A DNA stretch of 32,000 nucleotides from assembly GCA_001695645.1 (NCBI GenBank), contig LVZN01000001.1, positions 1 through 32,000 on the forward strand. Reading direction: 5' to 3'. A program made the position numbers and the translations under genes. The notes beneath the pieces are model-generated. The model was given only the letters and a program-made list of their open reading frames with translations, did not search any database and was not told the origin of the DNA. Shown in pieces: positions 1,216-14,460 of the stretch (position 1 is the first letter of the stretch; each line of letters starts with the position of its first letter). The stretch is from Erysipelotrichaceae bacterium MTC7 (lineage in GTDB: Bacteria > Bacillota_I > Bacilli_A > Erysipelotrichales > Erysipelotrichaceae).

Positions 1216-4200
1216 TCAGTCTTTTTTATTCTTTTCTCCATAGGTAGCAGAGTCTTCTGCAACCATACTTAACTCCGGTTCTGAAATCTTATAAATGAAC
1301 TTCTTTTTTAATCGTTCATACAGGACTGTGCCGATTGACTCCATAACCTGTTTCATCATGCCTGGGTCAGAGAACATACGAACAAAAAAATCATCATTTT
1401 GCTCATATCTGCTGGCAGCCATTTCAGGGAAGTCCTTCTCAAATAGCAACATGAATGTTTTGCGGTCGTTATTCTTAGCATAGCTTTGCCACTTTTCTTC
1501 AGATGCATAATCATTTTCAAGTTGTAATAGCACCTTGTCCATTTCTGTAAAGTTTGTTCCGTACTTCTCATTAATTTTATCAATCAGAACAGTAAGAGGG
1601 TCTTTCTTCTTTTCACGTCTTCCGGATTCTCCTGTAATAGAGTGAAATCCTTCCTCTGTTCCTTCAAGACCTATATTACCTTCGAAATCTTTTTCAAGAC
1701 GATAGTATTCGAGCAACACCTTGTCATCAACATCGACTTTTTCTCCACCACCTTTTGGCAACATGGTAGCAAGAAATTTAGCATACACGCTGAATTTATG
1801 TATATCCTTATCAAACAATCTGCATACCTGCGTAACGAATGCATAGATTCGATTAAAGCGTTGTATCGTTCCTTTGAAAATATCCTTCTTGTCATCGGCT
1901 AAAGCATTATATCTGTCTAACGCAGGTCTAATAGTACCTTGTAATTTACCAAGGTCTCCAGCCACCTGTGTTTTAGACGCATAGAATATTTCTGCAAATT
2001 TATCTATCTCCATTTGCTGATATACACGGAAACCATCCAGTGTGTTTTTCAAGTCATAAATCACATTCGGATTTGTTTCTTCTTCAAGAACAGTTTCTTC
2101 ATAATATGGTTCAAATGACTTCTTGATATCCTCTGCAGAGTTTACGAAATCAAGGACGAAGGTATCCTGCTTTCCACGCATTGTTCGGTTAAGTCTGGAA
2201 AGAGTCTGTACAGCTTTAACACCAGACAATTTCTTATCAACAAACATCGTATGCAATAAAGGTTCATCAAATCCGGTTTGATATTTTTCCGCAACAATCA
2301 GCATACCAAATTCATCGGTGTGGAATGCTTCTGGCAGAGCCTTTTCTTTTATAGTTTCTCCGACATTGTTTTTATTTAATTTTTCCTCGGTGTACTTTTC
2401 TCCATCGTCATCGACTTCGCCTGAAAATGCAACCAGAACATCAAGGTCGGTATAACCTTTTTCCTGTATCTGACGCTTGAATTCGTGTAAATATCGTACT
2501 GCGTGTAAACGAGACGGTGTAACAATCATTGCTTTTGCTTTACCACCGATTTTATGCATCGTCACATTTCTGAACTGTTCAAGCATAACAGAAGTCTTTT
2601 GTGAAATATTATGTGGATGCAAGGATTCATAATTAAGAATGGCTTTTACCCCTGCTGCTGTGTCGAGTTCTGGATTATCAGCAATGCTCTTGGTAATCTT
2701 ATAATACATTTTATAGGTCATATAATTTTGCAATACATCAAGAATAAAACGTTCCTCAATTGCCTGTCTCATAGAATAAATGTGGAACGGATGATACTTA
2801 CCTTCTTTATCACGGCAACCAAACATCTGCAGGGTTTTATCCTTTGGTGTAGCCGTAAAAGCAAAGAAGGATAAGTTGTCATGTATCCCTTGTGCTGCCA
2901 GTTCGTCAAGAAGTTTGTCCTCATCATCCTTACGCCTGCTTTCTTCTTCATATTCCATTTCGGCATATTCTTCAAGTATCTTTTCAGTGTCAGCCAATGC
3001 ACGTTTTAATTTTTTAGCTGCATCTCCTGTTTGAGAAGAGTGTGCTTCATCAACGATAATGGCGAAACGCTTATTGCCGGATTTCACTTCTTTATAGATA
3101 ACAGGGAATTTTTGCAATGTAGTAATGATAATACCTGTTCCAGCTTCAATGGCATCTTTCAATTGCTGTGCGTTTTTATCAATCTTCTGAACAACACCTT
3201 CCACATGGTCAAACTGATACACGGTATTTTGTAACTGGCTATCAAGCACTCGTCTGTCTGTAACAATAATTACTGACTGGAATATCTTCTCATCAGAATC
3301 ATCGTGCAAACCACTTAAACGGTGTGCTAACCATGCAATAGAATTAGACTTTCCGGAGCCTGCACTATGTTGAATTAAGTAATTATTTCCTGCACCATTT
3401 TCTTTCACATCTGCTAATAATTTTGTGACTACATCAAGCTGATGGTAACGAGGGAATATCATGCGTTCTTCCTTTACTTCTCCCGTTTTATCATCCTTGA
3501 TTACCTGTAAATGCAGATATTTATGTACAATTTCAAGTAGACGGTCTTTGCGCAAAACACTCTTCCATAGATACTCTGTGTCATAACCATCATCGTTAAT
3601 CGGGTTGCCTTTTCCACCGACTTTTCCCGCACCATTACTGCCTTGATTGAATGGTAAGAAATATGTTTTACCACCTTGTAAGCGTGTGGTCATATATACA
3701 TTAGTAAGGTCAACTGCAAAATGCACAAGCACTCGGTTCTTAAACTCAAAGATTGCATCATTGCCTGCACGGTCAAATTTATACTGGGCAATAGCATTTG
3801 CCGTATCCTGCCCTGTAAATTGGCACTTCAGTTCCATAGACACAACAGGAATACCATTGATAAAAAGCACAATATCAATACTGTTTTCATTCTGCAAAGA
3901 ATAGTGCAACTGCCTTGTGCAGTGCATAATGTTGGAATCATATTGCTTTACAATCGTTTCATTGATGCTCGTTTCCGGTTTCCAAAATACCGCACGGAAT
4001 TTAATGCCACGGTCTGTAAAACCTTGACGCAGAACCTTTAAAAGACCCACCATTTTTACTTCACGGCAGAAACGGTCTATGATTTGTTTTTCGGAATCTG
4101 AACCATATATTTTCACATATCGTTCCCATTGCTTAGGCTGGCTCTCCTTGATAAATGAAACAAATGTCTCCTTATCAAGAGCAAGCTTACGGTCAAAGTT

Positions 4201-4293
4201 TTTAGGATTGCCTTTTGTATAGCCTCCTTCAGTACAAAGGAAGCTTTCAATATCTTCTTCAAATCGCTTTTCTTTTACGTCAAAATCTGATAT
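1216..4293 (-). CDS. hsdR: Type I restriction enzyme R subunit (HsdR), SF2 helicase/nuclease
   Basis: Walker A (QHSAGSGKSNS) and DEAH box (IVDEAHSSQ), with HsdR-typical N-terminal nuclease-region similarity (IDIVLFINGIPVVSMELK). The ORF track starts at a GTG at 4116. The same frame stays open up to the TGA at 4329..4327 and encodes a typical HsdR N-terminus (SDFDVKEKRFEEDIESFLCTEGGYTKGNPKNFDRKLALDKETFVSFIKESQPKQWERY). The start was therefore placed at ATA 4293..4291, which is uncertain. Confidence 0.88.
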   Translation of the reverse strand: MSDFDVKEKRFEEDIESFLCTEGGYTKGNPKNFDRKLALDKETFVSFIKESQPKQWERYVKIYGSDSEKQIIDRFCREVKMVGLLKVLRQGFTDRGIKFRAVFWKPETSINETIVKQYDSNIMHCTRQLHYSLQNENSIDIVLFINGIPVVSMELKCQFTGQDTANAIAQYKFDRAGNDAIFEFKNRVLVHFAVDLTNVYMTTRLQGGKTYFLPFNQGSNGAGKVGGKGNPINDDGYDTEYLWKSVLRKDRLLEIVHKYLHLQVIKDDKTGEVKEERMIFPRYHQLDVVTKLLADVKENGAGNNYLIQHSAGSGKSNSIAWLAHRLSGLHDDSDEKIFQSVIIVTDRRVLDSQLQNTVYQFDHVEGVVQKIDKNAQQLKDAIEAGTGIIITTLQKFPVIYKEVKSGNKRFAIIVDEAHSSQTGDAAKKLKRALADTEKILEEYAEMEYEEESRRKDDEDKLLDELAAQGIHDNLSFFAFTATPKDKTLQMFGCRDKEGKYHPFHIYSMRQAIEERFILDVLQNYMTYKMYYKITKSIADNPELDTAAGVKAILNYESLHPHNISQKTSVMLEQFRNVTMHKIGGKAKAMIVTPSRLHAVRYLHEFKRQIQEKGYTDLDVLVAFSGEVDDDGEKYTEEKLNKNNVGETIKEKALPEAFHTDEFGMLIVAEKYQTGFDEPLLHTMFVDKKLSGVKAVQTLSRLNRTMRGKQDTFVLDFVNSAEDIKKSFEPYYEETVLEEETNPNVIYDLKNTLDGFRVYQQMEIDKFAEIFYASKTQVAGDLGKLQGTIRPALDRYNALADDKKDIFKGTIQRFNRIYAFVTQVCRLFDKDIHKFSVYAKFLATMLPKGGGEKVDVDDKVLLEYYRLEKDFEGNIGLEGTEEGFHSITGESGRREKKKDPLTVLIDKINEKYGTNFTEMDKVLLQLENDYASEEKWQSYAKNNDRKTFMLLFEKDFPEMAASRYEQNDDFFVRMFSDPGMMKQVMESIGTVLYERLKKKFIYKISEPELSMVAEDSATYGEKNKKD

Positions 4294-4685
4294 TAGATAT
4301 TCACCTCCGTTAGTATTTTTTGAATCTCACCATAATAGCAGTCCCTATTTTTAGGATACTCTGTAATAGTGAATCCAAACTTTTCGTAAAAATGATGAAG
4401 TCTTTCCTTGTGGTCTGTGTCAATGATGGATAAATTTCCATGGATTGTCGTATATCCATACTCTGTAGCATATGATAATAGCTTGTCCATCATAATAGAA
4501 CCGTAACCTTTATTGTAATCACGATTTTTCATATGAACGATATCACCAATCAAAATGGATTCATCTGATTCAATAACACACTGCATTTTAGATGTCATCT
4601 TGCTCTTAACAAAGCATTTTACCATCAGCAGCATATCAGATTTATCGATTCTAACCTCTGGCGATTGTGACTTATGAAAGAACAT
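4293..4685 (-). CDS. Small GNAT-family N-acetyltransferase (130 aa) embedded in the hsd operon
   Basis: Acetyl-CoA motif A-like segment (DIVHMKNRDYNKGYGSIMMDKLLSYATEYGYTTI) and C-terminal FYEKFGF. A GGAGGTG RBS lies inside the last hsdS codons, 6 nt before the ATG. Its own last codons (ACG GAG GTG AAT ATC TAA) supply the RBS for hsdR. Confidence 0.75.
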   Translation of the reverse strand: MFFHKSQSPEVRIDKSDMLLMVKCFVKSKMTSKMQCVIESDESILIGDIVHMKNRDYNKGYGSIMMDKLLSYATEYGYTTIHGNLSIIDTDHKERLHHFYEKFGFTITEYPKNRDCYYGEIQKILTEVNI

Positions 4686-4688
4686 GGC

Positions 4689-5927
4689 TCACACCTCCAT
4701 CTTTCCGGTAACAACCTCGTAAATCAGAGATTTTTTGTATTCGGTCAATTTGTCTATTGCTGATTGTTTACGACTTATAATAATATCTAATTCTTGACAC
4801 AGTTCCGTGATTCTATCAACCGCTTGTATTTGCAGTTCCATTGATGGAATATTGATTGATATTTGTGACAGCAAATCTTGATTTATATTGCTAATATTAG
4901 AACCCTGACTATACTTCTCAAGTTGTTTTCTGAAATAAGGGCTTCTAAAAAAGTATAACAAATACATATCATTTATGATGTCTGTTCTATTATTGCGAAA
5001 TCTGATGCAGAAGCCACTGTAAGTAAGTGGAAAATTTATATTTTCGACCATAATACTACGTCCAACAAGTTCTTTGCTCCCATTAGATCGTACGAAAACT
5101 ATATCACCACTTCTTAACAAATAATCTTCTGCAATATCATTATCAATAATTATATCCGAGAACATTTCTTCACTATTTAAAATGAAGTGGTCTTTAAAAT
5201 CACCAACTCCAAGAAATTTTATTCGTTTACTGCTCGTATTACTATTGAAATTTAAGCCGTTTTTCATTGTAGCGATGTATCCCAAATGACATCTATCTCC
5301 ATCAACATCTACAATAGCTTCATTTATTGCAGATAGCTTGTATTCCTTCAGCTTTTCAATCATAGCCTGCTCACGCTCGATGATGGCGTCGATTTTAGAG
5401 CACTTGCTGTCGAGGTAGTCGGCAATACGGTGTTGCAAAATAGAAGGTGCTACTGGTAATGCCACTGTATTTAATTTTGACATTTGAATACGCATTCGTA
5501 TTTCCATAATGCCATTTCCATAACCTTTTAACTTGCTTTGTAATTCCTTGGTTTGAAACAGATAATTATAATATCTAATATCATCATTTTCGTTTCGTGG
5601 AAAGAGCATATAATACACCGGACTAACACACCCATAATAATCAGATAAGGCAACAGACCCAATAATTACATTCATGCTGTTTAAAACTATATCACCTTGA
5701 TGTGCGAGTTTGTATCCGGTTAAATCATCTTTTGATTTATTTCCAATCTCTCCTTTATCGCTGTAGGGAATAACACCTCTATCATTTGTCAGCGATAAAA
5801 TAAAATCTGTTTTCACTGGATTATTTGATTCGTTTCTTTCACAGAGAACCGCTTTAAGTCTTTTGACAGTCCAACCAGATGGAATTACACCAATCCAATC
5901 TATTCCACTTTCTTTCATATCAATCAT
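4689..5927 (-). CDS. hsdS: Type I restriction-modification specificity subunit (HsdS), with two target-recognition domains
   Basis: Two variable halves are separated by conserved coiled-coil spacers (LPVAPSILQHRIADYLDSKCSKIDAIIEREQAMIEKLKEYK and IPSMELQIQAVDRITELCQELDIIISRKQSAIDKLTEYKKSLIYEVVTGK). It overlaps the hsdM stop by 4 nt. Confidence 0.9.
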   Translation of the reverse strand: MIDMKESGIDWIGVIPSGWTVKRLKAVLCERNESNNPVKTDFILSLTNDRGVIPYSDKGEIGNKSKDDLTGYKLAHQGDIVLNSMNVIIGSVALSDYYGCVSPVYYMLFPRNENDDIRYYNYLFQTKELQSKLKGYGNGIMEIRMRIQMSKLNTVALPVAPSILQHRIADYLDSKCSKIDAIIEREQAMIEKLKEYKLSAINEAIVDVDGDRCHLGYIATMKNGLNFNSNTSSKRIKFLGVGDFKDHFILNSEEMFSDIIIDNDIAEDYLLRSGDIVFVRSNGSKELVGRSIMVENINFPLTYSGFCIRFRNNRTDIINDMYLLYFFRSPYFRKQLEKYSQGSNISNINQDLLSQISINIPSMELQIQAVDRITELCQELDIIISRKQSAIDKLTEYKKSLIYEVVTGKMEV

Positions 5928-7654
5928 AAGCTAAACACCTCCGCCAAGGCTCCATCTAACTCAGTTTCGATATCCATAATTTCTGCCATGATTTCAGCAG
6001 AACTGCGAGGTGCTTCATATTTATAAAAATAGCGTGTGAATGGTATTTCATATCCAACCTTAGATTTGTTTTTATCAATCCAAGCATCCGGTGCGAAAGG
6101 AAGAACTTCACGCTTGAAGTATTCCGAAATATCCTCTTTCAATGGCACATTTTCTGTATCACGAAGAGAAGTGTCAGGTTGCTTTTTACCTTTCTTTAAC
6201 ACAAGTTCTCCGTTCTCGTCTTTGAGTGGACGCTCAACAGTGATTTTTGTGTAGCCAAAATCCTCCGTGTCATAAATCTGGCTGATTTCACTTGTCTTGA
6301 AATCTCCATAAATCTGCGTGATTTCATTGATTGCAGAAATAGGAATATCATTACGTTTGTTGCCTAATGTTTTTCTTCTTCTTTCATACAAATCATTAGC
6401 ATTGATAAGTTGAACTTTTCCCTCACGCATTGTGCCTGTTTTCTTGTTGGAAAGCACCCAGATATATGTTGCAATACCTGTGTTATAGAAGATGTCGTTT
6501 GGCAAAGCTATAATAGCCTCAAGCAAATCGTTCTCTAAAATATACTTTCTAATATCAGAAGGTCCACTTCCGGCATCGCCTGTGAACAGTGGAGAGCCGT
6601 TATGAATAATTGCAATACGACTACCACCCTGTGTTATATCTTTCATTTTGGAAATAGCAGTCATGAGGAACAGCATCTGTCCGTCACTTGCTGCCGGTAG
6701 TCCAGCCCCAAATCTACCTGCAAATCCAAGCTTTGCTTCTTTTTCAACTTTTGGTTTTTCGTTTTTCCATTCACGTCCAAAAGGCGGATTGGAAAGAATA
6801 TAGTCAAAGGTTTGTCCTTCGAATTGATCATCTGAAAGTGTATTACCATCTTTGATGAATTCAGCATTATTTCCCTTGATAAGCATATCTGCTTTACAGA
6901 TAGCAAAAGTCTGGTCATTTAACTCTTGTCCGAATGCCATAATTTCAGTAGAGGCATTCATCTTGTGCATATATTCCTCAGCCACAGATAGCATACCGCC
7001 GGTTCCACAGGCAGGGTCATAAATTGTCTTTGCTACGTTGTTGCCTGATAGAACATCATTATCGTCATAGAACAGAATATTAACCATAAGTTCAATAACT
7101 TCACGAGGAGTGTAATGCTGTCCTGCATCCTCATTATGTGCCTCAGAAAATCTTCTGATGATTTCTTCAAAAACATATCCCATCTCAAGATTAGAAATAA
7201 CACTTGGGTGCAGATTTGCTTTTGGAGATGTAAATTCTTTTATGACAATATAAAGGATGCCCTTATTAGCCATAGTAGTGATGTGACCATCAAACTTGAA
7301 CTTCTCAATAATATCCTGAACATTCTCAGAGAACCCGTTTAAGTAGTCACGGAAATTTGCTTCTATATTGTCCGGGTCATCAAGCAATTTGTCAAAATCA
7401 TATTTGCTTGTATTGTAAAATGCGTGACCGGATGCTTTACGCAAAAGGACATCACGCATAGGTAATGCTTTCACGCTTTCATATTTATCAAGCACAGCCC
7501 CCTTTGTATCAGCAAGAATACTATCAAAACGTTTAATAACTGTCATAGGAAGAATGACTTCTCCATATTCATGTGGCTTGTATACTCCTGTCAATTTATC
7601 TGCGATTGCCCATATAAGGGCAGCCTTTTCACTTACATTACTACTTAAGCTCAT
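5924..7654 (-). CDS. hsdM: Type I restriction-modification N6-adenine DNA methyltransferase subunit (HsdM)
   Basis: Motif I is DPACGTGGML and motif IV is NPPFG. There is an HsdM N-terminal domain (AALIWAIADKLTGVYKPHEYGEVILPMTVIKRFD). The start was moved to the second ATG (MSLSSN...) because GGAGGT sits 7 nt upstream of it. The ORF-track start is 7669. Confidence 0.92.
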   Translation of the reverse strand: MSLSSNVSEKAALIWAIADKLTGVYKPHEYGEVILPMTVIKRFDSILADTKGAVLDKYESVKALPMRDVLLRKASGHAFYNTSKYDFDKLLDDPDNIEANFRDYLNGFSENVQDIIEKFKFDGHITTMANKGILYIVIKEFTSPKANLHPSVISNLEMGYVFEEIIRRFSEAHNEDAGQHYTPREVIELMVNILFYDDNDVLSGNNVAKTIYDPACGTGGMLSVAEEYMHKMNASTEIMAFGQELNDQTFAICKADMLIKGNNAEFIKDGNTLSDDQFEGQTFDYILSNPPFGREWKNEKPKVEKEAKLGFAGRFGAGLPAASDGQMLFLMTAISKMKDITQGGSRIAIIHNGSPLFTGDAGSGPSDIRKYILENDLLEAIIALPNDIFYNTGIATYIWVLSNKKTGTMREGKVQLINANDLYERRRKTLGNKRNDIPISAINEITQIYGDFKTSEISQIYDTEDFGYTKITVERPLKDENGELVLKKGKKQPDTSLRDTENVPLKEDISEYFKREVLPFAPDAWIDKNKSKVGYEIPFTRYFYKYEAPRSSAEIMAEIMDIETELDGALAEVFSL

Positions 7655-7886
7655 AATCCGAACCTCCATTTTTTATTGTGATTTTTTCTCCATTAGGCAA
7701 TGTAAATGATTGCTCATAGGATATATTTAATTCATCAGCTATTTTAACAAGTTCTGTATCTGTGATAGTTCCTCTCTTTAGCTTCGCACTAAAGTTCTGA
7801 GGAGACTGACCAATACGCCTTGCCAATTCAGATAGGCTTATATCCATTCGTACACAAAGCACTTTAATTTGTTCTGCTGTTGTCAT
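7641..7886 (-). CDS. XRE-family helix-turn-helix protein (81 aa). It could be an RM controller-like protein or the element repressor.
   Basis: HTH_3-like segment (ISLSELARRIGQSPQNFSAKLKRGTITDTELVKIADELNIS). It is the first gene of the minus-strand operon and overlaps the hsdM start by 14 nt. Confidence 0.75.
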   Translation of the reverse strand: MTTAEQIKVLCVRMDISLSELARRIGQSPQNFSAKLKRGTITDTELVKIADELNISYEQSFTLPNGEKITIKNGGSDYELK

Positions 7887-7915
7887 ATCACACCTCCATC
7901 AAACTTCTGTGTTTT

Positions 7916-7944
7916 ATTATAAACGATTTCGTTGATAAATACAA
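7916..7944 (-). promoter_or_regulatory. Candidate sigma-A promoter for the HTH-hsdM-hsdS-GNAT-hsdR operon
   Basis: The minus strand reads TTGTAT, a 17-nt spacer, then TATAAT, about 30 nt upstream of the HTH start. The spacer contains the palindrome AACGA-TT-TCGTT (7922..7933). Confidence 0.45.
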
Positions 7945-7985
7945 TCTATTTAAAGCATTGTTTACAAAATAATTGATATTTTTTG

Positions 7986-8012
7986 AGCAGCCGACTATGG
8001 CTGCTTCTTTTT
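7986..8012 (+). terminator. GC-rich hairpin followed by a T run, with no plus-strand gene upstream
   Basis: AGCAGCC-gactat-GGCTGCT is followed by tctttttta. It lies between the divergent operons. Confidence 0.4.
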
Positions 8013-8100
8013 TATTCTTTTTTCCATATGAGGTTTAAATATCATCATTTTCTTTTGCCTGTGACTTAAGGGGTTCGATTGATTAGCATTTCTCGTTTAT

Positions 8101-8280
8101 GAATAGAAGATATTTTTTCTAAAACGTCCTTTTTTATGCGTTCTCAAGGCTATTAGGCATAAGGGAAAATATTTCTGAAAGTTGGTTCTTAAACACAGTG
8201 CAGGTGTCCTTTTACTATCAAAGGGAAAATGATTCCGTGATTTTGTTCTCGAACTGTCCTTTGGAAGATAGAGAGGGATA
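8101..8280. repeat. Three degenerate tandem units of about 60 bp (iteron-like) in the divergent intergenic region
   Basis: The units start near 8101, 8161 and 8221. Units 2 and 3 both begin AAGGGAAAAT(A/G)ATT(T/C)C(T/C)G, followed by GTTCT..AAC and then GTCCTTT. Unit 1 keeps GATATTTTTTCTAAAAC-GTCCTTTT. A further TTTTTTCTGAAATTGG copy lies at about 8395..8410. Confidence 0.55.
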
Positions 8281-8499
8281 AATAGTTTCTTCAAAGCCCG
8301 GAGAATACAATATCAATCTCCCTTAGTAAATTAGGAAGTAAAAATACTTCCGCTCAAATTGCCAGTTTATCTCCAGTGGAAAAGTGTAAGGATTATTTTT
8401 TCTGAAATTGGAAGTTTCATATCTTTCCAATACATAACCCTCAGAAGAAACAAAACTACAGGAACTGGCTACGCATAAAACAGAAGGAGGAAGAAGAAA

Positions 8500-10812
8500 A
8501 TGATTTATGACAACCTACCACAGCTAATCAAAGATACAGGTCAGTGCTGTGTTTGGAATTTAGAAAAAAGAAAAGGTCGCAATACTAAAGTGCCATATAA
8601 CCCTATCACAGGAAGGCACGCTTACGTTGATAACCCAGAAACCTTTGTAGATTTTGAAACTGCTGTAAATGCAGTCAGTAATTACAGTGGTATCGGTATT
8701 CGCGTGAATGGTCGCATTATTGCCATTGACCTTGACCACTGTATCGAAAATGGTCAACTGCTCTCGTGGTCAAAAGAAATCGTAGAGCAATTTAACAACA
8801 CCTACATCGAAATCAGTCCTAGTGTTACAGGCATTCGTATCCTTGCACTTATGCCGGAGGGCTACACCTATGATAGCAGTACCTTCTATATCAAGAAAGG
8901 CAATGTGGAAGTTTATGTTGCAGGTGCTACTAATCGCTTTGTAACACTCACAGGAAATGCATATCAACATTCTGATGTAACGGAGCAGGCTGATGCTATG
9001 CAGTGGCTACTTGATACGCATATGAAAAGAAAGCAGCCACTCAAGATGATTAATCCGAATTTAGAGCGTGACAGCTATCTTTCTGACGAGAGTGTGTTGG
9101 AAAAAGCTATGAAAGCAGCGAATGGCGAGAAGTTCAAAAAATTATGGAATGCAGACACCACAGGCTATTCCTCTCATAGCGAGGCAGATGCAGCACTCTG
9201 TTCTATGCTTGCATTCTACTGTAACGGAAATATGAAGCAAGTGGACAGGCTCTTTCGACAATCGGCACTTTATCGTGACAAATGGGACGAACAGCGTGGT
9301 GCAGACACTTATGGCAATCTCACGATTATGAAAGCAGTCGGCAATATGAAGAATTTTTATCAGCCAATCAAAATCAATCCTAATACGGATTTTAACGATG
9401 AACTGCAAAGACTCGTCACGCACAATCCATCGGACACGCTGAAATATCCGTGGACGGATATTGGTGCAGGAAAACTGTTTGCTGACTTCTACAAAGAGGT
9501 TCTCCGTTATGTGCCGGAACGCAGGAATTGGTTTTGCTACGAAGATGGTGCTTGGTCTATGGATACAGGTGGACTAAAAGCAATGCGATATTGCATGGAA
9601 CTTGCAAATTTTCTCCATCTGTATGCACTGGAAATTAAGGACGAGCATCAGAGAAAAAGTTACATGGATTATTCCAAGCGATGGCAGACGCATGGCTATC
9701 GTGTAAATGTTCTAAAGGACGCACAGGTGCATCATCCTATTTCCTTTTTGGAATTTGATAAAGACCCATACATCTTCAATTGTAGTAATGGCACTCTACA
9801 CCTTGATAGTGGGAAGTTTACGGAGCATTGCAGTTCTGACCTGTTGACGAAAATATCCGCTGTTGCTTACGACCCTTTGGCTCACAGTGAGCGTTGGGAC
9901 AATTTCATAACAGAAATTATGAGTAATGATCAAGACAGAGCCTTGTTCCTGCAAAAGGTTCTGGGTTATGCCCTTAGTGGTGATACCCGTCATGAATACA
10001 TGAGTATCCTCTATGGTGCTACCACCAGAAATGGCAAAGGTACGCTCTGTGAAAGTGTACTGAAGGTATTCGGCAGTTATGGCTGCACAGCAAGACCTGA
10101 AACCATTGCTCAGAAGAACAGCACCAACAGTTCTCAGCCAAGTGAAGATGTTGCCCGCCTTGCAGGAGTACGCTTTGTAAATATCGCAGAACCGGGAAAA
10201 AGTCTGGTATTGAATGCAGCTTTAGTAAAAAACATGACAGGCAATGACACTATCAATGCTCGTTTTCTCCATGAGAACAGTTTTGATTTTTCACCACAGT
10301 TCAAGCTGTACATCAACACCAATTATCTGCCTGTGGTAAACGATATGACGGTATTTGCCAGTGGACGAGTTATCATCATTCCTTTTGAGCGTCATTTTGA
10401 TGAATCGGAGCAGGACAAAGGCTTAAAGCGTGAGTTCATAAAACCACAGGTGCAATCAGCAATCCTAAATTGGCTGCTGAAAGGCTATGAGCAGCTACAA
10501 CTTCATGGACTGCATATGCCTCAGTCGGTCATCAATGCCACAGGTCAGTATGAGCATGACAGCAATAAAACTTTACTGTTTATTGAGGATTGCTTGGGGG
10601 AAGGTGCGGATTATGAAGAACGTACCTCTCAGGTCTATAACCGTTACAAATCGTGGTGCATGGAAAACGGACAATACGCTGAAAGCATGAAGAACTTCAA
10701 GCAGAGCTTGTCTGCTGTGATGGAAGTCAAGCGTAAGCGTCCAAAGTCCGGTGGAGAGAAAACCACAATGGTCGTTGGTTATCGGTTGATATCTGATTTT
10801 CTCCGAGGATAA
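8500..10812 (+). CDS. Replication protein: N-terminal prim-pol type primase fused to a P4/D5-family SF3 helicase (phage/plasmid primase family)
   Basis: Catalytic acidic motif (IAIDLDHC) and YIEISPSVTGIRIL. Primase C-terminal motif (SHSEADAALCSMLAFYCNGNMKQVDRLFRQSALYRDKWDEQRGADTYG). Walker A is GATTRNGKGT. An AAGGAGG RBS lies 9 nt upstream of the ATG. Confidence 0.88.
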   Translation: MIYDNLPQLIKDTGQCCVWNLEKRKGRNTKVPYNPITGRHAYVDNPETFVDFETAVNAVSNYSGIGIRVNGRIIAIDLDHCIENGQLLSWSKEIVEQFNNTYIEISPSVTGIRILALMPEGYTYDSSTFYIKKGNVEVYVAGATNRFVTLTGNAYQHSDVTEQADAMQWLLDTHMKRKQPLKMINPNLERDSYLSDESVLEKAMKAANGEKFKKLWNADTTGYSSHSEADAALCSMLAFYCNGNMKQVDRLFRQSALYRDKWDEQRGADTYGNLTIMKAVGNMKNFYQPIKINPNTDFNDELQRLVTHNPSDTLKYPWTDIGAGKLFADFYKEVLRYVPERRNWFCYEDGAWSMDTGGLKAMRYCMELANFLHLYALEIKDEHQRKSYMDYSKRWQTHGYRVNVLKDAQVHHPISFLEFDKDPYIFNCSNGTLHLDSGKFTEHCSSDLLTKISAVAYDPLAHSERWDNFITEIMSNDQDRALFLQKVLGYALSGDTRHEYMSILYGATTRNGKGTLCESVLKVFGSYGCTARPETIAQKNSTNSSQPSEDVARLAGVRFVNIAEPGKSLVLNAALVKNMTGNDTINARFLHENSFDFSPQFKLYINTNYLPVVNDMTVFASGRVIIIPFERHFDESEQDKGLKREFIKPQVQSAILNWLLKGYEQLQLHGLHMPQSVINATGQYEHDSNKTLLFIEDCLGEGADYEERTSQVYNRYKSWCMENGQYAESMKNFKQSLSAVMEVKRKRPKSGGEKTTMVVGYRLISDFLRG

Positions 10813-11067
10813 ACACAGGGGGCAGTATGGGGCAAGTAATATAGGTATTTCTCTATAGGAAATCAATATTTTCATATAACCATTTTTTCTTGCCACAATA
10901 TGCCCCACCACTGTGACCATTGGGCAACTGTGTAAAAGGTAGCGTTTTACGACCTTAGCATTTACTTGAAAGGGGTGATGCTTATGATTGCATAACTTTG
11001 GCTCAAAAATGAGCATAACTCGCTTTCCAATTATGGAAAGCAACAACAACGAAAGGAGGCGTTTGCC

Positions 11068-11277
11068 ATGATGAACAAAGAAGAATTTGAAAAGTATTTC
11101 AAGCTTCACAACAAGATCGTGCTTTATACCAAGGATAATATTCCTATTACATTCTCAAAGGAATATCATTTTCATTTTAGCGGAGGTCATTATGAATTTG
11201 ATATTGCAGATTGTGAAGACCTTGCAGACTTCTGCAAAAAGCGTGGTCTTTATCTGAAACCAAATAATGTTCAGTAA
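11068..11277 (+). CDS. Hypothetical small protein (69 aa)
   Basis: A GGAGG RBS lies 8 nt upstream of the ATG. The ORF is clean and non-overlapping, sitting between the primase and capsid genes. No motif was recognised. Confidence 0.5.
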   Translation: MMNKEEFEKYFKLHNKIVLYTKDNIPITFSKEYHFHFSGGHYEFDIADCEDLADFCKKRGLYLKPNNVQ

Positions 11278-11500
11278 TAAGCCTAGGTAGGGGCGGTCAG
11301 AATCTCTACCACTATTATAGCGGAAAACGGGGCAAGGCTCTCACGCACAAAAACGCAAATTCAAAGGGGTAATATACCCCACCTGCTAATGCTTGAAAAT
11401 GGCGTATTTATTGGCTTTAGAACCTTGCAATCCGTTTGAAATCGTTTGAAAAAACTATATTTATTCAAAAAAAATCAAACATTTAAGGAGGATTTTAATT

Positions 11501-12439
11501 ATGAATGAAAACACAAAAATTACTCTCCATACAGGAGACCCAGAATACGATAAAAACTTTTGGAACCTTGCACGAGGAACAGGTGGATACGAAGGATCGC
11601 TTGCTATGTGTACTGATCGAGCAACAGGTGGTTATCCACTTCCTGCTGTGGCTCAGAATAAGTTTTCCGAAGCACTGAACAAGGAAAGTCTATTCAGACG
11701 CATTGGTACTACTATGAATGCTTTAAATAATGGATATCGTATCTTTGCTAAAGACTGTGAAGATATTGCTATGTGGGTGCCAGAAGGTGGTGCTATTCCA
11801 ATCTATGAAGGCATTGAAGATTTCACGGAGCATAGATTAGAAAGCTATAAACTTGCTGCCTTTGTAAAACTCGATGAGGACTTTATCCACGATGTTAGTT
11901 TTAACATGGAGAAATATCTGATTGAGCGTTTAGCAATGAACTTCTCTAAGGGAGAAGAAAACGGATTTATCAATGGAACAAGCAATGCAGAACCAACCGG
12001 TATTCTTGCAGAAACAGGTGGTGCTGATATTGGTGTGACAACTACTGCCCTAACCTTTGATGATATTACAAAATTATTCTTCTCCGTTAAGCCTGAATAC
12101 CGAACAAATGGTAGTTGGATGATGAATGATGAAACAGCACTTTACCTTCGTAGCCTTAAAGACAATGATAGTAACTTTTTATGGCGAGGAAGTACCGATA
12201 CGCTTATGGGAAAACCTGTGATTATTTCTAATGAGATGCCATCCATTAGTACAGGTGCTAAAGCTGTAGCCTTCGGAGATTTTTCTTATTACTGGGTAGT
12301 CAATAGAAAGCTTATCTCTGTAAGAACTCTAAAAGAGAAATTTGCACTTCACGATCAGATTGGTTATCTTGCGTTTGAATTTGTAGATGGTCGCTTAATA
12401 AGATCAGAAGCCATCAAAGTTATTCAGATTTCTGAATAA
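11501..12439 (+). CDS. HK97-family phage major capsid protein (312 aa) lacking an N-terminal delta/scaffolding domain
   Basis: Phage_capsid-type motifs: NFWNLARGTGG...ATGGYPLP near the N-terminus, GFINGTSNAEPTGIL, LMGKPVIISNEMP, and AFGDFSYYWVVNRKLISVRTLKEKFALHDQIGYLAFEFVDGRL. A TAAGGAGG RBS is present. Confidence 0.85.
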   Translation: MNENTKITLHTGDPEYDKNFWNLARGTGGYEGSLAMCTDRATGGYPLPAVAQNKFSEALNKESLFRRIGTTMNALNNGYRIFAKDCEDIAMWVPEGGAIPIYEGIEDFTEHRLESYKLAAFVKLDEDFIHDVSFNMEKYLIERLAMNFSKGEENGFINGTSNAEPTGILAETGGADIGVTTTALTFDDITKLFFSVKPEYRTNGSWMMNDETALYLRSLKDNDSNFLWRGSTDTLMGKPVIISNEMPSISTGAKAVAFGDFSYYWVVNRKLISVRTLKEKFALHDQIGYLAFEFVDGRLIRSEAIKVIQISE

Positions 12440-12461
12440 CTAATCATTACCTAATCTACCG

Positions 12462-12689
12462 ATGGAGAAAGGTGCATACAAAATGAATAATGAAATTAAC
12501 AAAAGCCGTATCACCGAAACTTCCATCGGTGGAACGGTGTACATTGTGGAATCTCTGGTTAGTGATAAAGCCAAAGAAACTGCCTATACCAAGGTCAAAA
12601 GGCTCATTATAAGCAATTCCAAAGACCATATAAAGTTATCAGAAACGACACAATTATTATCGCCAAAAGACTACACTTCAGCGAAATAG
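12462..12689 (+). CDS. TnpW-like small transposon-encoded protein. The true start is probably the ATG at 12483.
   Basis: The segment RITETSIGGTVYIVESLVSDKAKETAYTKVKRLII resembles the TnpW family found in Tn4451-type clostridial elements. This is recalled from memory and was not searched. The gene lies directly upstream of the serine recombinase. Confidence 0.5.
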   Translation: MEKGAYKMNNEINKSRITETSIGGTVYIVESLVSDKAKETAYTKVKRLIISNSKDHIKLSETTQLLSPKDYTSAK

Positions 12690-12710
12690 TACGGTAATAT
12701 GTCATACTGA

Positions 12711-14460
<1,750 letters not shown>

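Follow-up and report, generated by a model that had tools for sequence, protein, structure and literature searches.

Does a small acetyltransferase gene that lies inside a type I restriction-modification (RM) operon work for the restriction system, against it, or beside it? The gene in question encodes a 130-amino acid protein of the GNAT superfamily and is found between hsdS and hsdR in a stretch of 32,000 nucleotides from Erysipelotrichaceae bacterium MTC7 (contig LVZN01000001.1, positions 1 to 32,000; the whole stretch is referred to as the window). An original prediction, made from the sequence, proposed that the protein is a latent translation-blocking effector that is guarded by the type I complex in the way that the anticodon nuclease PrrC is. 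This interpretation is partly supported: the linkage with RM and with defence is real, and the mechanism that was proposed is not favoured. The protein belongs to a previously unannotated group of GNATs, referred to here as mini-GNATs, whose members are found in immune operons of several unrelated types.

All three subunits of a type I system are present in the window, and HsdM, HsdS and HsdR are recognized with their characteristic domains through matches to Pfam, PADLOC and NCBIfam. The genes lie on the minus strand in the order HTH_26 gene, hsdM, hsdS, GNAT and hsdR, and they form one tightly packed operon that features the following elements.

4293..4685, minus strand: the mini-GNAT acetyltransferase gene, 130 amino acids, identified from the open reading frame (ORF), Pfam, homologues, alignments, AlphaFold2, Foldseek and dN/dS (the ratio of nonsynonymous to synonymous substitution rates).
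4692..4698, minus strand: GGAGGTG, the Shine-Dalgarno sequence of the GNAT gene, read from the sequence within the final hsdS codons.
4302..4308, minus strand: GGAGGTG, the Shine-Dalgarno sequence of hsdR, within the final GNAT codons and 8 nucleotides upstream of the hsdR start.
1216..4293, minus strand: hsdR, the type I restriction/translocase subunit (Pfam HSDR_N, ResIII, SWI2_SNF2 and T1R_D3-like; TIGR00348 hsdR, 1.7e-57).
4689..5927, minus strand: hsdS, the specificity subunit, 412 amino acids with two target-recognition domains (Pfam Methylase_S in two stretches; PADLOC Specificity_I, 4e-91).
5924..7669, minus strand: hsdM, the type I methyltransferase subunit, 581 amino acids (Pfam N6_Mtase, 2e-60, and HsdM_N, 1e-24; PADLOC MTase_I, 7e-262).
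7641..7886, minus strand: an HTH_26 (Cro/C1-type) gene, 81 amino acids, the first gene of the operon (Pfam HTH_26, 1.6e-9).

The hsdS gene ends with TGA at 4691..4689, the GNAT ATG (4685..4683) follows after a gap of 3 nucleotides, and the GNAT stop codon, TAA at 4295..4293, overlaps hsdR by 1 nucleotide. The GNAT gene is thus, as had been claimed, an integral same-strand member of the operon in the prrC slot. Of the ribosome-binding sites proposed for the two junctions, both are found (read along the minus strand at 4698..4692 and 4308..4302), with one correction: the start codon of hsdR reads ATA. An equivalent layout, with the GNAT Shine-Dalgarno sequence inside the end of hsdS, is seen in the related operons L001, L005 and L009 (L numbers designate the loci compared); the hsdR Shine-Dalgarno sequence is kept in L001, L003 and L005 and reads GGAGGGG in L009. 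This arrangement indicates that, in the window, the GNAT gene shares its transcript with hsdS and hsdR and is translationally coupled to both.

The GNAT ORF is a real, selected gene and not a chance reading frame. Its product matches an NCBI "hypothetical protein" from Erysipelotrichaceae bacterium MTC7 with 100% identity, and 48 homologues were retrieved at E≤1e-3 from a collection of 5.8 billion proteins, the best non-identical one at 8e-71. Comparison with orthologous operons gives a dN/dS of 0.13–0.19, which corresponds to purifying selection and is 5–8 times that of the flanking hsdR and hsdM (0.02–0.03). The GNAT protein is accordingly 68–79% identical to its counterparts in related operons where HsdR is 93–94% identical. 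Positive selection was considered and set aside, since these values show only relaxed or faster evolution. Pfam recognizes Acetyltransf_1 over residues 58–106 only, with 23.5 bits against a gathering cut-off of 20.7, in agreement with the GNAT assignment of the original prediction. No family of PADLOC-DB v2 (E≤0.1) or NCBIfam matched the protein, and a PHROGs search returned weak, generic acetyltransferase families only.

An AlphaFold2 model built on a 42-sequence alignment (predicted local distance difference test score, pLDDT, 88; predicted template-modelling score, pTM, 0.82) features a GNAT topology in the order of four β-strands, α3 (residues 61–75), β5, α4 (87–102), β6 and β7. DSSP assigns only these two helices to the model and places four consecutive strands in residues 10–51, so the model lacks the N-terminal α1 and α2 helices, by which the acceptor site is usually covered. 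The acetyl-CoA loop N58-K-G60-Y-G62-S follows β4 and agrees with the R/Q-x-x-G-x-G/A pattern; N58, G60 and G62 are conserved in at least 90% of alignment A1, and in alignment A2 G62 is invariant and N58 and G60 reach at least 90%. The FY100xKFGF segment, including Y100, is conserved in both sub-clades. Because the loop and this segment are conserved, the protein is predicted to be an active acetyl-CoA-dependent enzyme. It is not basic, the family having a median isoelectric point (pI) of 6.6 and a net charge of about −1. Foldseek searches of the PDB gave 389 matches at E≤1e-3, the top 50 of which are all GNATs with a TM-score of about 0.65, led by the protein acetyltransferases SACOL1063, HP0935, Ard1 and RimI. 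The best PDB sequence matches of the family profile are 2i79, Naa50 and Ard1, and weak profile matches to streptothricin and aminoglycoside acetyltransferases are also found. Both fold and profile place the protein in the GNAT superfamily.

The relatives of the protein form a small family: a representative search gave 466 matches at E≤1e-3 and just 43 at E≤1e-10. Longer proteins among these matches, which might have been taken for clade members fused to other domains, are covered in their C-terminal half only and belong to other GNAT families. Loci were collected by contig look-up and by scans of genomes, metagenomes and viral contigs with a family hidden Markov model and a motif filter, which yielded 68 clade loci and 46 non-redundant proteins with enough flanking sequence. 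The clade carries the signature GxLSxVDxDH...L.HFYxKxGF (in short form LSxVDxDH...HFYxKFGF), and D48, G62, G83, L85, S86, D89, L96, H98, F99, Y100, K102, G104 and F105 are invariant across its Firmicute and Dehalococcoidia members. The literature searched contains no account of this family or of its distribution over multiple systems, nor does it describe a stand-alone GNAT between hsdS and hsdR.

The link of this clade to RM is strong. An hsd gene lies within 5 kb of 20 of the 46 clade members, compared with 2 of 78 other GNATs that were retrieved in the same scans and serve as the control (odds ratio 29, Fisher P=1e-8), so it is not the case that the homologues are never linked to hsd genes. 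The gene recurs between hsdS and hsdR in at least three divergent type I lineages, one of them in Dehalococcoidia. The plain order hsdS-GNAT-hsdR is found in the window and in L001–5, L009, L022/L023 and L097, and the HsdR of L022/L023 is just 43% identical to that of the window. The other type I contexts are as follows.

L117: hsdS-GNAT-hsdR with a further 185-amino acid ORF, and a nucleotide-cyclase-domain gene after hsdR (L117:11084-12403).
L096: hsdS-GNAT-nuclease-hsdR, the nuclease being pP_pnuc_1 of the pPIWI-associated type (L096:3128-4045).
L015: hsdS, a 106-amino acid ORF, GNAT, GmrSD and hsdR.
L116: hsdS-TIR-GNAT-hsdR, with the TIR-GNAT pair at L116:4367-5378.
L019: a type I locus whose contig ends after GNAT, with DUF6037 between hsdM and hsdS (L019:5098-5733).
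L016: a degraded type I locus.
L025 (Thomasclavelia cocleata DSM 1551), 7810-8867: the GNAT gene is split into ORFs of 60 and 80 amino acids, apparently by a frameshift.
L120: GNAT followed by an HsdR of EcoEI type, a different gene order.
L042, L061, L064 and L069: type I loci of Dehalococcoidia, also with GNAT in the hsdS-to-hsdR slot.

Among the Dehalococcoidia loci, GNAT overlaps the end of hsdS in L061 and L064, and a Schlafen-AlbA_2/HATPase_c_4 gene comes after GNAT in L042 and L064. In L025 the HTH-hsdM-hsdS-...-hsdR arrangement is otherwise intact, and unannotated ORFs of 99 and 109 amino acids stand between the split GNAT and hsdR.

More than half of the clade is found away from type I systems, 26 of the 46 non-redundant members having no hsd gene within 5 kb. 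Their contexts include other restriction systems and other immune genes.

L020 (Ruminococcus flavefaciens YL228): McrB-McrC-GNAT-Schlafen_AlbA_2, type IV restriction.
L006-8: Dcm methylase-Eco29kI-GNAT, type II RM.
L021, L024 and L098-L115: ThsB-like TIR-GNAT with a 17-nucleotide gene overlap, about 20 gut-metagenome loci.
L010-12, L028 and L124: GNAT-AbiH; L121: AbiH-GNAT.
L033:6120-8237 and L037:6169-8228 (Dehalococcoidia): GNAT directly after an ABC-type ATPase gene (AAA_21).
L016:3392-5026, L020:7974-9644, L042:7830-9732 and L064:7779-10168: GNAT with a Schlafen-AlbA_2 gene (L016, L042 and L064 being type I loci listed above).
L026: GNAT with a PLD-helicase-DUF3427 gene.
L018: GNAT with an AAA_5/NACHT-like ATPase.
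L119 (HxlR-GNAT-MetK-NUDIX), L027 (beside CAT), L030 (beside hydantoinase), L035 and L123: no obvious immune gene.
L013/L014: a context like that of an integrative and conjugative element (ICE), with no obvious immune gene.

The mini-GNAT gene lies directly upstream of the Schlafen-AlbA_2 gene in four independent contexts from two phyla, and the two may form a two-gene module. The two-gene cassette of TIR and mini-GNAT is common in contigs of human-gut metagenomes, and no described TIR-GNAT system was found. The L010 locus lies in an island with RES and CTD6/MC2/MC4 genes. The ATPase gene of L033 also has a DUF4435 domain, which makes it a PARIS-like AriA/AriB fusion; the gene downstream is DUF3800 in L033 and encodes an LRR protein in L037. 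An all-against-all BLAST of the small flanking ORFs revealed no partner that is conserved family-wide, and the partners found are local: the TIR gene, an ORF of about 70 amino acids that is common to L019/L096, and one ORF that is common to L030/L038.

In a neighbour-joining tree the type I contexts fall into at least six separate branches that are interleaved with TIR, AbiH, McrBC and type II contexts. This interleaving means that the cassette has been transferred again and again from one immune operon to another, the type I hsdS-hsdR junction being its favourite site. The defence link of the clade is supported by these arrangements.

The reading that we prefer, although we give it somewhat less than an even chance, is that of an autonomous, embedded, protein-acetylating defence cassette that is non-toxic alone and independent of the type I complex. 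The mini-GNAT gene would be a small cassette that enters or adjoins immune operons, most commonly at the hsdS-hsdR junction, and adds an extra defence layer of its own. Its product would acetylate a protein of a phage or mobile element, possibly an anti-defence factor, and the sub-hypothesis that it neutralizes a phage anti-defence protein is attractive. We infer a contribution to immunity because the gene is embedded in immune operons, an argument of guilt by embedding for which there is experimental precedent. The TgvAB genes lie within a type I RM system of V. cholerae and act independently in defence (PMC11411939), and Payne et al. validated Hma-embedded candidates and reported that embedded genes are co-oriented with their host system in 96.7% of cases (10.1101/2024.01.29.577857). 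The mini-GNAT gene resembles TgvAB and the HEC/PDC candidates of RM, BREX and Hma operons in its co-oriented embedding and in that the cassette is found outside that operon type as well, and differs from them in having no match in PADLOC-DB v2. Genes in restriction operons, such as PrrC, TgvAB and the HEC candidates, have repeatedly proved to be independent defence systems.

The remaining parts of the preferred reading rest on distribution and on the protein itself. Independence from the type I complex is suggested by the more than half of members that have no type I system nearby, and the protein is probably not constitutively toxic, since no antitoxin accompanies it and it occurs as a lone gene. 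A macromolecular acceptor, probably a protein that the invader supplies, is favoured by four features: the acceptor face, which is open where α1 and α2 are missing; the nearest relatives, which are protein N-acetyltransferases; the near-neutral charge; and the faster evolution of the GNAT relative to its neighbour genes, which would fit contact with a variable target.

Several observations count against this autonomous defence cassette. The protein is a single domain of 130 amino acids without an evident sensor, which leaves its discrimination of infection unexplained, and its likeness to N-α-acetyltransferases fits the α-amine of aminoacyl-tRNA equally well. A functional tie to type I complexes is also conceivable, since type I RM, which could be the ancestral partner, is much more common than any other. 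The contexts of L119, L027, L030 and L035 do not look like defence. Finally, the count of members with any defence gene as neighbour (35 of 46, against 4 of 78 controls) is inflated, because the probes were drawn from clade neighbourhoods, and the conclusions rest on the hsd-only comparison instead.

Among the alternatives, the one that survives best is the guard effector of the original prediction, in which a latent aminoacyl-tRNA-acetylating toxin is held by the type I complex and freed by phage anti-restriction proteins, leading to abortive infection; it is nevertheless unlikely. It draws on the prrC slot, on the translational coupling to hsdS and hsdR, and on type I RM being the commonest context across two phyla. 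GNAT toxins acetylate the α-amine of aminoacyl-tRNA, and the nearest solved relatives of the mini-GNAT (Naa50, Ard1 and RimI) acetylate α-amines too. Eukaryotic Schlafens and AriB of PARIS cleave tRNA, and the clade has Schlafen-AlbA_2 neighbours in L016, L020, L042 and L064 and a PARIS-like neighbour in L033 and L037. The mini-GNAT also resembles PrrC and RloC (of the E. coli prr locus and the Campylobacter rlo genes) in its hsdS-hsdR slot, its strand and its co-expression with RM, and the idea of a second-line function within an RM operon is common to both. PrrC and RloC, however, consist of an ABC-ATPase and a HEPN nuclease, whereas the mini-GNAT is a single GNAT domain of unrelated fold and chemistry, and no ABC-type NTPase, HEPN or anticodon-nuclease domain was matched in it by Pfam, PADLOC or NCBIfam. 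PrrC is almost exclusive to type I RM (10.1101/2024.01.29.577857); unlike PrrC, the mini-GNAT clade is also found with type II, type IV, TIR, AbiH and PARIS-like genes. A guard specific to type I cannot hold for the clade as a whole, since members without a type I system in the vicinity sit beside McrBC, type II RM, TIR, AbiH and PARIS-like genes. In the window, moreover, hsdR has no canonical start, yet the GNAT gene is intact.

The toxin half of the guard proposal fares no better. The mini-GNAT shares with TacT, AtaT, ItaT and KacT its small size, its acetyl-CoA motifs and nearest relatives that acetylate α-amino groups; unlike them, it has no α1 and α2 and is not basic. No Pfam family of RHH/DUF1778-type antitoxins was found in any clade neighbourhood examined. 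The fold comparison that had been suggested with TacT, AtaT and ItaT returned only generic GNATs: the GNAT toxins are not among the top 50 of the 389 Foldseek matches, and when profiles A1 and A2 were compared with all PDB sequences (28 matches at E≤1 and 57 at E≤10), none was named TacT, AtaT, KacT, ItaT or AcrVA5. Membership of the TacT/AtaT family is therefore rejected, and the TacT- or AtaT-like toxin guarded by the type I complex is not borne out.

Slightly less likely still is a modifier of small molecules or nucleic acids that is carried as island cargo, acting on an aminoglycoside-like amine, DNA, a nucleotide or a signal, with an immune linkage that is indirect or due to hitch-hiking. 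The contexts that do not look immune fit such an enzyme, among them the CAT neighbour in L027 and the HxlR-GNAT-MetK-NUDIX order of L119, and so do the weak profile matches to streptothricin and aminoglycoside acetyltransferases. DNA-modifying enzymes of GNAT fold include the known Mom (PMC7261163) and the predicted GNAT/TGT modules, which are placed in BREX-related systems (PMC12839542). The hsd enrichment is strong and phylogenetically repeated, however, and a chance linkage is hard to square with the overlap, at the level of codons, between GNAT and hsdR or TIR genes. DNA modification beside the modification-dependent McrBC or GmrSD would be paradoxical, and the open acceptor face of the modelled protein would seem poorly suited to small ligands.

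It is improbable that the mini-GNAT is an anti-defence factor in the style of AcrVA5, which would disable an immune protein of the recipient host and help the RM-carrying element to establish. The operon is carried by a small integrative element that also encodes a primase-helicase, a protein of the capsid family and a serine recombinase, L009 adjoins Tn7-like genes, and L006 and L013 are ICE-like. AcrVA5 is likewise a very small GNAT on mobile DNA; it acts on an immune-system protein, acetylating Cas12a (10.1101/2021.11.16.468554, PMC10799925), and anti-host polyvalent proteins contain GNAT domains (PMC5512222). Unlike AcrVA5, the mini-GNAT is embedded in defence operons and not in anti-defence loci, and AcrVA5 is not among its PDB profile matches. 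Co-oriented embedding with overlapping codons is typical of defence genes (96.7% share orientation, 10.1101/2024.01.29.577857). A tblastn search of 50,697 phage records gave no clade match, and only one of the six loci from a scan of IMG/VR belongs to the clade, which is thus all but absent from viruses. In PLSDB, four plasmid matches were found, all weak and partial.

Self-protection or regulation, in which the GNAT would hold autoimmunity in check by acetylating the nuclease or effector next to it, or some host factor, with restriction alleviation tied to acetyl-CoA status, would suit the fixed GNAT:HsdR ratio that coupling with hsdR would give, the potential self-toxicity of all partner effectors and the reversible control of a nuclease by acetylation documented for Cas12a (10.1101/2021.11.16.468554), but it has little chance of being right, as HsdR, McrBC, Eco29kI, TIR, AbiH and PARIS-like partners are structurally unrelated and unlikely to be recognized by one enzyme, and most type I systems do without a GNAT.

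The autonomous defence cassette may be set against earlier reports of GNATs in defence, which bear on the claim that an RM-coupled GNAT effector is novel. PIN-GNAT-EVE proteins with type I RM operons were described computationally by Bell et al. in 2020 (PMC7641849). They resemble the mini-GNAT in that a GNAT domain is repeatedly tied to HsdR/M/S operons and other defence loci, their function being predicted; they are multi-domain proteins with an ASCH partner, whereas the mini-GNAT is single-domain, and no EVE, PIN or ASCH domain was found in it or in the neighbourhoods examined. Brc113, a single-gene GNAT integron cassette, came out of a functional screen as a phage-defence candidate that enabled growth when cells were challenged with T4 or T7 (10.1101/2024.07.02.601719); it and the mini-GNAT are both single-gene GNATs. 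In view of these reports the claim of novelty is overstated, although no description of this clade was found in the literature searched. The mini-GNAT is best regarded as a putative embedded accessory defence gene with GNAT chemistry; the category is known, and the stand-alone helix-less clade and its multi-system range appear to be new.

A broader proposal is possible but doubtful: mini-GNATs could be a new, widespread class of accessory immune enzymes that plug into operons of type I, II and IV restriction and of TIR, AbiH, Schlafen and PARIS-like systems, and that use acetyl-CoA to inactivate a phage factor (e.g., an anti-defence protein) or to shut down translation when the partner system is blocked. 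If this were true, bacteria would make general use of acetylation as a second line of immunity. In the literature searched, no mechanism has been established by which acetylation serves the host in phage defence, and protection against phages by the GNAT would bring a new enzymatic chemistry into bacterial immunity. It would also explain a hypothetical gene that recurs in the RM loci of gut Firmicutes and Dehalococcoidia. Should the GNAT instead restrain its partner nucleases or disable recipient immunity, it would inform how mobile elements manage the RM systems they carry. The candidate is small (130 amino acids) and easily tested, with clear catalytic residues and an unusually broad range of partners over two phyla.

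The start codon of hsdR in the window departs from that of its relatives.

4291..4293, minus strand: the hsdR start-codon position, which reads ATA and has base 4293 in common with the GNAT TAA stop.

The GNAT/hsdR junction reads TAATA in the window and TAATG in the four related contigs L001, L003, L005 and L009, which represent three operon versions (L001/L003, L005 and L009). The next in-frame ATG, GTG or TTG is a GTG at 4116, 59 codons downstream, and a start there would skip a conserved part of the HsdR N-terminus. The frame is otherwise open over 1025 codons, and its product is 93–94% identical to the HsdR of L001, L005 and L009. The window thus has no intact, canonically initiated hsdR. 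An ATA codon initiates translation very poorly, so, barring a sequencing error at this base, the hsdR of the window is probably expressed weakly or not at all. The operon would then be a restriction-attenuated (R-minus, M-plus) variant; otherwise the ATA is a base-call error.

The first gene of the operon overlaps the start of hsdM by 29 nucleotides with its end. An HTH_26 gene is kept ahead of hsdM with 93–95% identity in L001, L005 and L009 and 53% in L025, and it likely encodes a regulator of the controller type (C-protein-like) for this type I system. The variant operon closest to that of the window (L001:5645-7996) has as its hsdM a 783-amino acid fusion of the M and S subunits with a single target-recognition domain and lacks a separate hsdS, and the GNAT gene still lies directly before hsdR. 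On the other side, the 3′ end of hsdR in the window abuts an IS110-family transposase gene at 146-1093 on the plus strand (Transposase_20 and a partial DEDD_Tnp_IS110). In related operons this place is taken by a protein-kinase gene (L005 and L009) or a 154-amino acid ORF (L001).

Upstream of the operon, the window features genes for a D5/NrS-1-type primase-helicase (8500-10812), a protein of the Phage_capsid family (11501-12439) and a large serine recombinase with DUF4368 (12723-14432), after which teichoic-acid and ABC-transporter genes follow. The backbone of L001 is the same, with Resolvase, TnpW, capsid and primase genes followed by HTH-hsdM and the rest of the operon. The RM operon is cargo of this small integrative element (146-1093 and 8500-14432), which looks like a satellite, a PICI-like (phage-inducible chromosomal island) unit or a transposon-like unit with a defence payload.

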